A stretch of 4,545 nt of DNA from positions 1 through 4,545 of IMG/VR virus record IMGVR_UViG_2667528155_000011, one strand, 5' to 3'. Of this stretch, positions 1,023 through 4,545 are shown piece by piece. A program made the translations under genes and the position numbers. Under the pieces are notes generated by a model that ran no database searches, had not been told where the DNA came from, and was given only the letters and a program-made list of their open reading frames with translations. Positions within the stretch are counted from its first letter, which is position 1, and each line of letters opens with the position of its first letter. This DNA comes from a virus. Lineage: Duplodnaviria; Heunggongvirae; Uroviricota; Caudoviricetes.

Positions 1023-1412
1023 TCAATGGCGATACGCTGTGATGGCGGGATCTGCGGCCACAGCGGTTGCATGGTCACCCCGGTGGGATCGCGATAATCC
1101 ACCGCGTGAATCTTNNNTCTGCNGCAATNCCANNGCGNCCTGGCTATTGGGGGAAAAGTCTTTCAAACCAAGCTGTTTACAGTAAGCATCCCACCACCGG
1201 GAAAGAATCTGGTAGCGTCCAGCAGCCGTTGATTTAAGTTTTGGGTTTAGCGTGACAAGTTTGCGAGGATGATCGGAGTAATCAGTGAATAGCTCACCAC
1301 CTACAATAACGTCGTAGCCGTGATTGCGGGTTGGCTGTCGCCCGTTATCCGTTCCTTCTGACCACGCCAACATATCGAGGAAAGCTTTACGCTGAGGATT
1401 AAGATTTAGCAT
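1023..1412 (-). CDS. R: Phage endolysin, lambda R-type lytic transglycosylase; 3' end uncertain
   Basis: First ~100 residues ([91 protein letters not shown]...) are near-identical to remembered lambda R, including the catalytic-Glu motif AWSEGTD. ATG at 1412 is preceded by GGGGTG. Region 1115-1140 contains ambiguous bases and the C-terminal 29 residues diverge from lambda R; the ORF is 129 aa versus 158 in lambda. Confidence 0.75.
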
Positions 1413-1716
1413 TTTTCACCCCTGTCAGTCGTTCCCAGAAGTATGTCAGTGCAACCGAACCCATCGCACCACTAATCCCCGCTGTCGCGAGAATCATGTA
1501 AATACTGAATCCACTTTCGATACTGTTCAGGCCACCAATAACACCGGTGAATCCCGACACCACTATCTGAGCCAAAGCATTTATCCAGCTCCACGTTGCT
1601 TTACTCTGCTTCACATCTATCAGGTAGCGGACCAGACCGCCCCAACCTGCGATGATCAGCAAAACGAGCCAGAACGCTCCGGCAAGGCTCTCTTTTTCGT
1701 GCATATGAATAGCCAA
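1399..1716 (-). CDS. Putative holin (three hydrophobic segments, charged C-terminus), possible dual start TTG 1716 / ATG 1704
   Basis: 101-105 aa ORF directly upstream of and overlapping the endolysin start by 14 nt. Hydrophobic stretches AGAFWLVLLIIAGWGGLV, WINALAQIVVSGFTGVIGGL and FSIYMILATAGISGAMGSVALTYF, followed by the basic tail [11 protein letters not shown]. Family assignment is by position and topology, not by recognised sequence. Confidence 0.6.
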   Translation of the reverse strand: MAIHMHEKESLAGAFWLVLLIIAGWGGLVRYLIDVKQSKATWSWINALAQIVVSGFTGVIGGLNSIESGFSIYMILATAGISGAMGSVALTYFWERLTGVKNAKS

Positions 1717-1818
1717 TGTTTCGCCGCCGACAAAAGGCCGGGACGTTAAATGTCAGAAATCAGGCTCACGGGGTAATTTAACGACAAAGCACGGAGTTGA
1801 TGCTCCCCGCAAGCCTGG

Positions 1819-1844
1819 AATAAAAAAGCCAGCATGTAGCTGGC
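1819..1844 (-). terminator. Rho-independent terminator (tR'-like) in the Q-to-holin control region
   Basis: Minus strand reads GCCAGC-tacat-GCTGGC followed by TTTTTTATT (stem 1844..1828, U-tract 1827..1819). Confidence 0.6.
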
Positions 1845-1920
1845 AACAGAGGGTTAAGCAATATCAACTCAACAGCTGAAGACACCCTGGCTGGGGTACG
1901 TTGGAAGGATACTCACCGCC

Positions 1921-1958
1921 CAGAAACAGAAAAGCCCAAGGCTTTAAACCTCGGGCTT
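1921..1958 (-). terminator. Candidate hairpin plus U-rich tail (upstream member of a possible tandem terminator pair, or a leader RNA structure)
   Basis: Minus strand: aaagcc-ttg-ggcttt (or the longer aagccc...gggctt stem) followed by ttctgtttctg. Weaker than the 1819-1844 terminator. Confidence 0.35.
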
Positions 1959-2013
1959 GAATTTGGATTACTGCCAGTGCGTACAACATTGGCAAAATAT
2001 CAGATTTACATAA

Positions 2014-2042
2014 AATATATGATTTTTAATCCAGTTTTGCAA
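2014..2042 (-). promoter_or_regulatory. Candidate late promoter (PR'-like) overlapping the 3' end of the Q-position gene
   Basis: Minus strand: -35 TTGCAA (2042..2037), 17-bp spacer, -10 TATATT (2019..2014), predicted start ~2007. A -10-like GATATT and TTGCCA lie in the initial transcribed region (2001..1990), a possible sigma-dependent pause element as in lambdoid late promoters. An alternative weaker promoter is TTGCCA (1995..1990) / AGTAAT (1972..1967). Hexamer matching only. Confidence 0.35.
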
Positions 2043-2715
2043 TATCTTGCTGTGAAAATGTGGTCTTTTGTTTTGAACGTGTTTTCGTTAAAAGCAATAA
2101 AGCTTGGCTATCAAGCTGTAGAAAAATGTGCTTCATTGCAACCCAGCGTTCAGTAAATGTCTCAGACCAGTTTTTTGATGTCACTCCCACCAGTGATGCC
2201 AACTCCTGGTATTCATAGGTCTTACGCCCTGCCAGCTCGTTCTTCACATCCTGTGCCGCCAGCCAGATCAACTTCTTCAAACGTTCCAGTGTCTTACCTG
2301 CAATTTTCCTGGTACCCAACAGAGTCTTAAACTCGCTCCATGCCCACTGCGTTATGGTGACCTGATGTTCCCAGCGAACACTTTCGCTGTAACTCCACAG
2401 CAACCACGCTTTCTGATGTTCTTCGAGAGACAGAACCGCGCGGCGCCATGATGATGTTGAGAACTCGATCGGACTGACCAGGGCAATGGATGAGCCTTTC
2501 GCCCGTGACTGCTTACCGGGTATCGGCGGATTATCCAGCGTTATTAACCTGCCGGTCACTTCATCCAGAATGCGCGGTTTCTTTCGTTTGTATGTACCGG
2601 TATCAAATTGCGCATGCTCCTGCCAGGCCACCAACTGCCCTTTCGTCGCACCACTCAGATCGGCGGTGGCCACCATGAGCTGCTCGCGAACAAACTGTAA
2701 ATATTGGGTATTCAT
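2026..2715 (-). CDS. Putative late-gene antiterminator Q-like protein (assigned by synteny; family not recognised)
   Basis: 229-aa ORF with AGGAG 9 nt upstream of the ATG at 2715, coupled to ylcG by an ATGA overlap. It sits where quuD/Q sits in DLP12-like prophages, just upstream of the promoter/terminator region and lysis genes. It contains no cysteine, so it is not a zinc-finger Q-lambda type. Trp-rich, with a possible HTH near the C-terminus (YQELASLVGVTSKNWSETF). Confidence 0.45.
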   Translation of the reverse strand: MNTQYLQFVREQLMVATADLSGATKGQLVAWQEHAQFDTGTYKRKKPRILDEVTGRLITLDNPPIPGKQSRAKGSSIALVSPIEFSTSSWRRAVLSLEEHQKAWLLWSYSESVRWEHQVTITQWAWSEFKTLLGTRKIAGKTLERLKKLIWLAAQDVKNELAGRKTYEYQELASLVGVTSKNWSETFTERWVAMKHIFLQLDSQALLLLTKTRSKQKTTFSQQDIAKLD

Positions 2716-4288: not shown

Positions 4289-4545
4289 TAGACTGGCCCC
4301 CTGAATCTCCAGACAACCAGTATCACTTAAATAAGTGATAGTCTTAATACTAGTTTTTAGACTAGTCATTGGAGAACAGATGATTGATGTCTTAGGGCCG
4401 GAGAAACGCAGACGGCGTACCACACAGGAAAAGATCGCAATTGTTCAGCAGAGCTTTGAACCGGGGATGACGGTCTCCCTCGTTGCCCGGCAACATGGTG
4501 TAGCAGCCAGCCAGTTATTTCTCTGGCGTAAGCAATACCAGGAAG
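4289..4545 (+). mobile_element. IS2 left end (IRL onward), continuing past the right window edge
   Basis: tagactggccccctgaatctccagacaaccagtatcacttaaataagtgatagtcttaatactagtttttagactagtcattggagaacag matches the remembered IS2 left terminus and is followed by the insC start. Confidence 0.85.
4380..4545 (+). CDS. insC: IS2 transposase OrfA (InsC), N-terminal part, 3' partial at window edge
   Basis: ATG at 4380 with GGAG 6 nt upstream. Translation [55 protein letters not shown] matches remembered IS2 InsC. Confidence 0.85.

Follow-up and report, generated by a model that had tools for sequence, protein, structure and literature searches.

A probable phage 82-type late-gene control region and a candidate pre-holin RNA motif in a lambdoid prophage

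Gene organization of the nin-Q-lysis segment

The DNA analysed here, a stretch of 4,545 nucleotides that we call the window, carries on its minus strand a lambdoid nin-Q-lysis segment with IS-derived sequence on both sides. The NinB gene (4116-3661) is followed on the same strand by those for NinE, YbcO and RusA, and a 46-aa YlcG-like ORF lies between RusA and Q, also on the minus strand. The Q gene (2026..2715, minus strand) codes for a 229-aa antiterminator of the Q82 family (Pfam PF06323, E 9.6e-97). The first lysis gene, at 1399..1716 of the minus strand, codes for a LydA-type holin (Pfam PF16083, E 3.9e-21) and carries a holin annotation in PhiR47_2 and in RefSeq E. coli genomes, and an R-type lysozyme gene on the same strand is truncated and contains Ns. 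Because of the flanking IS elements and the truncated, N-containing lysozyme gene the prophage is regarded as degraded, and for this reason the 82-type switch described below may no longer be in charge of a working lysis cassette.

The Q protein of the window shares 94% identity over 229 aa with that of phage 82 (13 amino-acid differences), and the order and sizes of the genes NinB-NinE-YbcO-RusA-orf45-Q agree between the window and the phage 82 record X92588. This record ends at the Q stop codon, and the DNA comparison with phage 82 reaches that far; its final 75 nt, which include the -35 hexamer and the spacer up to the stop, show 5 mismatches with the window. No tRNA gene was found in the window with ARAGORN, and between Q and the holin the sole minus-strand ORF of at least 40 aa is one of 43 aa with a TTG start that overlaps the leader, in agreement with a preliminary description of this DNA, according to which no tRNA or cargo gene is inserted here.

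The late promoter and the presumed Q-binding element

The end of the Q gene is overlapped on the minus strand by a -35 hexamer TTGCAA of the 82 pR' type (2037..2042) and a -10 hexamer TATATT (2014..2019; consensus of the relatives tAtatT), which are separated by 17 bp, within the 16-18 bp of sigma70 promoters, such that the Q stop codon TAA (2028-2026) sits in the promoter spacer. The preliminary description had pointed to this same pair of hexamers at the same spacing over the end of Q, and this holds. It had added that promoter and Q overlap as they do in lambda, and here it was mistaken, as the -35 of lambda PR' begins 43 nt past the Q stop (last base of Q at 44509, TTGACT-17-TAAATT at 44552-44580).

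The -35 hexamer shows no difference between the window and the phage 82 record X92588. The 17-bp spacer AACTGGATTAAAAATCA (2020..2036) contains the final codons of Q together with the stop; its positions 2036-2026 are those of X92588 with no differences, and the block ATTGCAAAACTGGATTAAAA within it is common to the window, phage 434 and Gifsy-1. The Q-binding element (QBE) of phage 82 lies between the -35 and the -10 (PMC4914094), and the spacer of the window is presumed to be the QBE bound by the Q82-type protein.

The promoter match on its own does not exceed chance: the window has 5 promoter-like sites, and shuffled sequences have 5.2 +/- 2.6 (for terminator-like sites the counts are 10 vs 4.3 +/- 2.2). 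The case therefore stands on homology and conservation. A promoter-like site on the plus strand at 1989-2016 (10/12 matches) is probably fortuitous, because the -35 and the A at position 2 of the -10 are missing in the relatives, as compared by eye. A promoter in or just before terminator 2 (TTGCCA, CATATT) was rejected, the spacings being unsuitable.

The start site and the pause element

The wild-type RNA from 82 pR' begins with AAA, its positions +15-17 are GCC and its position +25 is U (PMC5001585). As no other start satisfies these three features, transcription in the window is predicted to begin at A2007 of the minus strand, the first A of an AAA. The start of the Rfam isrJ model, at 2010, is 3 nt upstream of this A. 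Read from A2007, the window has AAATC-TG-A-TATTTT-GCC-AATGTT-G-U, which agrees with every retrievable published feature of 82 pR'; 3' of the Q stop, this fit was judged against published text descriptions and not by alignment.

The candidate sigma70-dependent pause element is the extended -10-like sequence TG-a-TATTTT at +6 to +14 (1994..2002), in which TG at 2002-2001 is followed by one base and by TATTTT at 1999-1994; its assignment is based on invariant bases and on the description of phage 82, in which the element is likewise -10-like with an extended -10 and is engaged by sigma70 when the RNA is 21 nt long (PMC5001585). It is followed by a putative discriminator-like GCC at +15 to +17 (1991..1993), recognised from the sequence and from the GCC at +15-17 that the 82 pause requires (PMC5001585). 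Next, the stretch at +18-23 is AT-rich (AATGTT), as is the stretch ahead of the pause site in 82 pR' (PMC5001585, PMC4914094), and then come G at +24 and U at +25. Pausing at 82 pR' occurs at +25/+26, with U at +25 (PMC5001585), and by this fit the predicted pause positions in the window are +25 (U) and +26 (1982..1983). Engineered insertions in 82 pR' have been made at +9, +15 and +18 (PMC5001585, PMC4914094); the 1-nt insertion at +18 brings a G to the pause end (PMC5001585), from which it follows that +24 of 82 pR' is a G.

The pause-like repeat had been described before as GATATT, and this hexamer is indeed present at 2001-1996. The register, however, has to be corrected, since the conserved element is TGnTATnnT, two bases downstream: the invariant bases fall on the G of the extended -10 and on the -12, -11 and -7 positions in this register, whereas in the GATATT register the last base varies among T, C and G across loci.

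Conservation of the promoter and pause block

Searched with the Q protein, a set of genomes with one representative per species yielded 24 loci. They come from E. coli, Shigella and 12 further genera of enterobacteria, and their Q proteins are 61-75% identical to that of the window. Adding phage 434, Gifsy-1 and the window and leaving out the duplicates L014 and L021 gave 25 distinct sequences, over which Q identities span 61-94%. The TTGCA of the -35 and the bases G+7, T+9, A+10 and T+14 never vary in these 25 sequences, window included. All of them have the promoter/pause block. Measured from the Q stop, its place does not change in 23 of the 24 distinct Q82-family loci compared; the exception is Gifsy-1, in which an inserted module parts the block from Q and the promoter block alone is retained. 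Its retention away from Q in this prophage shows that the block is a discrete functional unit.

Of 5,426 complete E. coli genomes, 790 (~15%, about one in seven) carry the whole 421-nt segment from Q to the holin with 95-99% identity, O157:H7 and O55:H7 strains among them, and the same holds for phage PhiR47_2. A 100% match occurs in E. coli 2013C-4974. Given this near-identity in so many genomes and in PhiR47_2, the system is already known: judged by its sequence, the control region is a copy of the textbook, well-studied phage 82-type switch.

Terminator 1 and the IsrJ-like leader RNA

Downstream of the predicted pause site, a 12-pair stem with a U-rich tail folds at 1922..1958 of the minus strand (+50 to +86). 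We refer to it as terminator 1, the putative equivalent of tR'; its stem, at 1958-1932, has -17.8 kcal/mol (z -4.9), its tail UUCUGUUUCU runs to 1922, and the succession of a G+C-rich hairpin and the U tract UUUUCUGUUUCU is that of an intrinsic terminator. The hairpin with a U-rich tail that the preliminary description had placed at about +50 to +85 is this one. A terminator scan found a strong hairpin plus U tract within +28 to +86 in 22 of the 24 related loci, and in the other two (L012, L013) an equivalent of terminator 1 appears on folding. Across the relatives the stem has about 12 different sequences, and of its 9 consensus pairs 4 show compensatory changes.

The RNA from +1 to +86 folds into a leader hairpin 1 (+13 to +37; 1971..1995, minus strand; -8.5 kcal/mol, z -1.8) and the hairpin of terminator 1, with z -4.1 for the whole. 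Hairpin 1 is strong in some lineages, weak in leaders of the IsrJ type and absent from phage 434 and L007, and it was rejected as a universal element of the leader. RNAalifold did not recover it from a MAFFT alignment of the leaders, because its registers differ between lineages.

The leader RNA predicted from these elements is ~80 nt long (1925..2007, minus strand, with the 3' end placed by terminator 1) and resembles the Salmonella sRNA IsrJ. The Rfam isrJ model (RF01393) matches 2010-1931 with 30.4 bits (E 0.0087), a score that lies below the gathering threshold of 37 bits and thus outside formal membership of the family. At the equivalent position the model gives 100.3 bits in Gifsy-1, 93.5 bits in Citrobacter L017 and 58.9 bits in Pseudocitrobacter L008; the matches in L017 and L008 are directly 3' of a Q82-type gene, and in the window, L002, L008 and L017 the model starts 32-33 nt past the first base of the -35. 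IsrJ has been mapped by primer extension as a 74-nt RNA. As the isrJ model matches at equivalent positions and IsrJ itself was mapped, the window leader is, on this evidence, a diverged homologue of a demonstrated transcript, the IsrJ of Salmonella Gifsy-1. Conversely, by position and sequence, the virulence-associated IsrJ is the terminated leader of an 82-type late promoter, a description that we did not find in the literature searched. Homologous leaders are present across Enterobacteriaceae, including ~15% of complete E. coli genomes. IsrJ would fall into one class with StxS and lambda 6S RNA, as an RNA that arises as a by-product of control by antitermination, which suggests that its expression obeys the logic of the prophage.

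A different view of the short RNA is that it is mainly the product of a trans-acting, Hfq-binding sRNA gene of the IsrJ family with targets in the host, and that Q control comes second. IsrJ influences invasion and effector translocation in Salmonella and isrJ is labelled Hfq-binding in Rfam, two other late-promoter leaders, StxS and lambda 6S RNA, have a trans-acting role or bind Hfq, and the window leader is built like a usual sRNA, in which a 5' hairpin is joined by a linker rich in A and U to a terminator that ends in a U tail. However, the best-conserved part of the RNA, +1 to +14, coincides with the DNA element required for pausing, and past +17 the sequence varies freely between lineages, unlike a conserved seed region, so that we consider this view unlikely, if deserving of attention. 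The two roles are compatible and do not exclude each other, and an sRNA role would therefore be an addition to Q control and not a replacement for it.

Terminator 2 and the pre-holin RNA motif

Closer to the holin, at 1819..1844 of the minus strand, the stem GCCAGC/GCUGGC (1844-1828) is followed by UUUUUUAUU (1827-1819). This hairpin, terminator 2, had been called a canonical terminator in the preliminary description, and we agree: the stem has -10.7 kcal/mol, it is G+C-rich and it leads into the U tract UUUUUUAUU, as in intrinsic terminators. Folding of the minus-strand RNA, which had been suggested as a check, thus came out in favour of both terminators.

The two terminators had been described as a tandem pair in one compact region. 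Both are present, but they do not form one unit. The similarity of the window to phages with related Q genes stops just past terminator 1 (query positions up to 191-197), and the similarity to phages with other Q types, such as mEp237 and UPF_BP1, starts at ~1870 to 1830. From these limits, terminator 1 alone is assigned to the Q/leader module, and terminator 2 opens a separate conserved module that heads lysis cassettes. In the relatives terminator 2 is found at +156 to +488, after tRNA genes or morons, and units with other stems and the same UUUUUUAUU tract precede holins in many phages.

Terminator 2 is followed by a long-range stem-loop (1761..1817, minus strand; -26.1 kcal/mol, z -4.8), in which CAGGCUUGCGGGG (1817-1805) is paired with CCCCGUGAGCCUG (1773-1761) and the loop carries the conserved GUGCUUUGUCGUUAAAU (1792-1776). 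The layout of the whole motif (1753..1851, minus strand) comprises the terminator hairpin with its fixed UUUUUUAUU tract, a long-range stem of 11-13 bp and a loop with GCUUUGUyGUUAAAU. A covariance model, R1, was built from seven copies of the motif and searched in 40 sources; it gives 63.3 bits (E 3e-11) in the window and finds the motif in 27 of the 40. Among 26 distinct sequences, changes on both sides occur in all 6 pairs of the terminator 2 stem and in 10 of the 11 pairs of the long-range stem, that is in 16 of the 17 pairs of the motif. Standard pairs occupy 98.4% of cells vs 76.5% in shuffles and 22-52% when the partners are slid by 1-3 columns. Both the pair counts and these percentages lean towards the structure, because the alignment was fitted to the R1 model.

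The distance from the end of the motif to the holin start codon is 24-50 nt in most of the loci examined, and the holins that it precedes belong to five Pfam families. By BLAST it is present in 55 phage records, nearly all of them without annotation at that place; the motif has no match in Rfam, and it is absent from lambda and phage 434.

The stretch between the terminators (1852..1895, minus strand) is not unique filler, as by eye it resembles the sequence that follows tRNA genes in the relatives (ACCCCAGCCAGGGTG...GATATTGCTTAACCCTC in the window vs AACCCAnnnCCwGGG...GACATTGCCTTACCCTC in these). Since relatives have tRNA genes, or morons in reverse orientation, between the two terminators, and since the window retains this diverged copy of the stretch after their tRNAs, terminator 2 could be thought to stand outside late control, as the leftover 3' end of a former tRNA or moron unit that is kept by descent only. 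We judge this to be quite unlikely. Terminator 2 with its U tract and stem-loop is fixed at 24-50 nt from most holin starts, with or without cargo, a spacing seen with all five holin families and with no fewer than two types of Q, and the both-side changes in every pair of its stem speak for selection on the hairpin itself.

A further reading, somewhat less likely than not, makes terminator 2 the opening half of a cis-acting RNA motif of ~100 nt (1851-1753) that would be undescribed so far, a possible gate on holin expression. With the same reserve we suggest that this motif could mark the start of the lysis cassette in many enterobacterial temperate phages, whatever their Q type or holin family. 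It is the only item in this region that may be new. Our working view is that terminator 2 would be a second barrier to Q-unmodified polymerase just upstream of the holin, a role of the kind suggested in general terms for intra-operon terminators. One option for the motif as a whole is that it would stop Q-unmodified polymerases and that cleavage in the U tract would leave a protective 5' stem-loop on the lysis mRNA. A covariation-supported motif directly upstream of unrelated holins points to a shared, unstudied layer of holin control, and the holin is the most dangerous gene that a prophage carries.

Three other explanations of the motif were tried and discarded. Pairing of the loop with the pre-holin leader, which in the window would join CGUUAAAU and AUUUAACG over 8 bp and in L008 would have the same length, was dropped, as by eye it is not kept in L033, mEp237, L024 and UPF_BP1. 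The loop was also rejected as an rrn/nut boxA, to which it is similar at only ~5/8 positions. As for IpeX, the sRNA of DLP12, the nmpC of K-12 is on the opposite strand, and upstream of essD the R1 model gives only 14.5 bits.

Proposed mechanism of late-gene control

We propose, with a probability of about 0.9, that positions 2042-1819 of the minus strand control the late genes of a lambdoid prophage of the phage 82 type. The preliminary description had put forward a late promoter, a pause element and a terminated leader RNA as the substrate of Q, and this reading is supported by the near-identity of Q to Q82 and by the fit to 82 pR', and is further backed by the conservation over 25 loci and by the mapped 74-nt IsrJ at the Gifsy-1 site. 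It is highly improbable that the promoter match is fortuitous, as the number of promoter-like sites expected from shuffling might suggest, and that both hairpins just end the early rightward (PR) transcript with nin and Q, for the bases of the -35, -10 and pause element are invariant at fixed positions in 25 loci, the Gifsy-1 block still makes IsrJ after being moved off Q, and the fit to the text descriptions of 82 pR' is close.

By analogy with lambda and Stx phages, the sigma70 promoter over the last Q codons would fire constantly. The steps that follow, from the start through pausing and Q binding to read-through, are modelled on phage 82. RNA polymerase would initiate at A2007, and sigma70 would re-bind TGaTATTTT at +6 to +14, leading to a pause at +25/+26. 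Without Q, the polymerase would resume transcription and stop at terminator 1 (~+80), freeing the short IsrJ-like leader, and any polymerase that escapes or has started downstream would meet terminator 2, ~100 nt upstream of the holin. When Q is made, the 229-aa Q82-type protein would bind the DNA between the -35 and the -10 and load onto the paused polymerase with the help of NusA, making it resistant to both terminators, and the Q-modified polymerase would then go on through the holin gene into the remainder of the late operon. The practical outcome is a correct annotation of a very common prophage module, the late promoter, pause site and leader of which are left blank in genome annotations.

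Comparison with known systems

The lambda PR'-6S-tR' system offers the same general scheme, with Q-independent activity of the promoter, a sigma70-dependent proximal pause, a terminated leader and Q-dependent read-through into S. The components are different. The Q of lambda belongs to PF03589 (PMC9388147) and is unrelated to the PF06323 protein of the window, lambda is not among the 34 phages with DNA matches to the window, and it has no pre-holin motif; its pause is at +16/17 vs a predicted +25 in the window, and its leader has 194 nt vs a predicted ~80 nt. The equation of lambda 6S RNA with PreS was rejected, as PreS is LPR1, which comes from the early left operon.

StxS, an RNA of ~74 nt that arises from early termination at the Q-controlled late promoter of Stx phage, is like the window leader in being a short terminated leader of a late promoter, with no sequence similarity and with a different Q type; tRNAs and stx genes lie downstream in Stx phages, whereas the window is without cargo. 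In phage 21 and phage L the QBE reportedly overlaps with the 3' end of Q. The presumed overlap of QBE and Q in the window is alike, but the Q of those phages is a Q21-family protein (PF06530) and the repeats of their QBE are others.

The IsrJ locus of Gifsy-1 shares with the window the promoter block, which is 91.5% identical over 47 nt, and the two agree in their start region and in their layout of a 5' hairpin plus terminator. The sequences of hairpin 1 and of the terminator are unlike those of the window, as is the placement of the block, which in Gifsy-1 lies after anrP, with a P1-like immI module (IsrK/C4) between Q and the promoter.

Phage 82 is alike in its Q (94% identical), in the order of the nin genes and Q, and in the -35 and that part of the spacer that reaches to the Q stop, which are identical. 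According to the text descriptions it is also alike in the AAA start, the element at +6 to +14, the GCC at +15-17, the G at +24 and the U at +25. The window in addition has the marks by which a phage 82-type region is recognised, namely a PF06323 Q gene directly upstream and an intrinsic terminator 3' of the predicted pause site.

A conserved RNA motif upstream of the holin gene

At 1753-1851 on the minus strand, we found an RNA motif directly preceding the holin gene, with copies in L008 (3564-3663), L030 (1520-1620), L151 (1782-1883) and 20 more sources. The motif begins with the hairpin of terminator 2, followed by UUUUUUAUU and then by a long-range stem of 11-13 bp, and the loop inside this stem contains GCUUUGUyGUUAAAU. 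Its covariation is strong, as 98.4% of the cells are paired and changes on both sides occur in 16 of the 17 pairs. The downstream holins belong to five Pfam families and the upstream Q genes to at least two types. The motif has no Rfam family, and no description of it was found in the literature. In the DLP12 prophage of E. coli K-12, a weak match to its covariance model (L150, 4749-4845; 14.5 bits, E 0.11) lies directly upstream of essD and may represent a degenerate copy.

Within the long-range stem-loop, at 1790-1811 (minus strand), lies a third terminator-like site, a weak one consisting of TGCGGGGAGCATCAACTCCGTG and then CTTTGTCGTT. This site and the outer stem compete for the GCGGGG segment; thus, the outer long-range stem and the inner weak terminator may be alternative structures.

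Between terminators 1 and 2, the stretch at 1852-1895 (minus strand) is similar to a roughly 85-nt conserved sequence, AACCCAnnnCCwGGG...AGAGCyGACATTGCCTTACCCTCAyATTGCC, which in L008, L010, L015, L016, L023 and L027 is located upstream of their own terminator 2. The 3' end of a tRNA directly precedes it in L010, L015, L016 and L023; the window has the inter-terminator stretch and no tRNA gene. Downstream of the motif, two in-frame start codons of the holin gene, TTG at 1716 and ATG at 1704, are spaced four codons apart (1702-1716, minus strand), and the protein begins with MAIHM...; this organization may correspond to a holin/antiholin dual start.

The late promoter and signal-like matches on the opposite strand

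The spacer of the late promoter (2020-2036, minus strand), presumed to be the Q-binding element, falls into about five types among the window and the equivalent sites of L004-L027: AACTGGATTrAAA, AAGTCAATTAAAT, AAATGAACTAAtT, AACCGAACTGAAA and AAGTAGATTGAAA. The same spacer types encode differing Q C-termini (KLD, KVN, EMN, KPN and KVD), and this may point to Q specificity co-varying with its presumed site.

On the plus strand, the top-scoring promoter-like match of the entire window (TTGGCA, 16 bp, TAAAAT; 10/12) is located at 1989-2016, antisense to the leader RNA and directed into the 3' end of Q. This match is probably fortuitous, since its sequence is that of the pause region in reverse complement and the relatives do not conserve it. 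A perfect TTGC-N6-TTGC, the consensus of the lambda CII site, is present at 2037-2050 (plus strand), overlapping the -35 of the late promoter on the opposite strand, and the equivalent site is annotated in the phage 434 record as a CII site and paQ -35. In the window, no suitable -10 was found downstream of it, and the same nucleotides also code for the Q C-terminus.

Prophage borders and comparison with Gifsy-1

The prophage segment is flanked by mobile-element debris (205-572, 530-968, 970-1140 and 4290-4545). STnc490, the IS200 5' RNA structure (205-329, 140 bits), is followed by a truncated Y1 transposase; the fragment at 530-968, with part of a metal ABC transporter and a transposase, is identical to plasmid sequence, and the right end holds the start of an IS3-family transposase, which we take to be IS2. 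The lysozyme gene is shortened and contains runs of N.

In Gifsy-1 (L002, 1502-1608 and 685-883), the 82-type promoter block and IsrJ are placed after anrP, not after antQ. Rfam matches to c4-a1b1, C4 and isrK, which constitute a P1-like immI module, lie in between. Stated nowhere in the searchable literature, the reading that follows from this arrangement is that IsrJ appears to be the terminated leader RNA of the late promoter in Gifsy-1, moved away from Q by an insertion.
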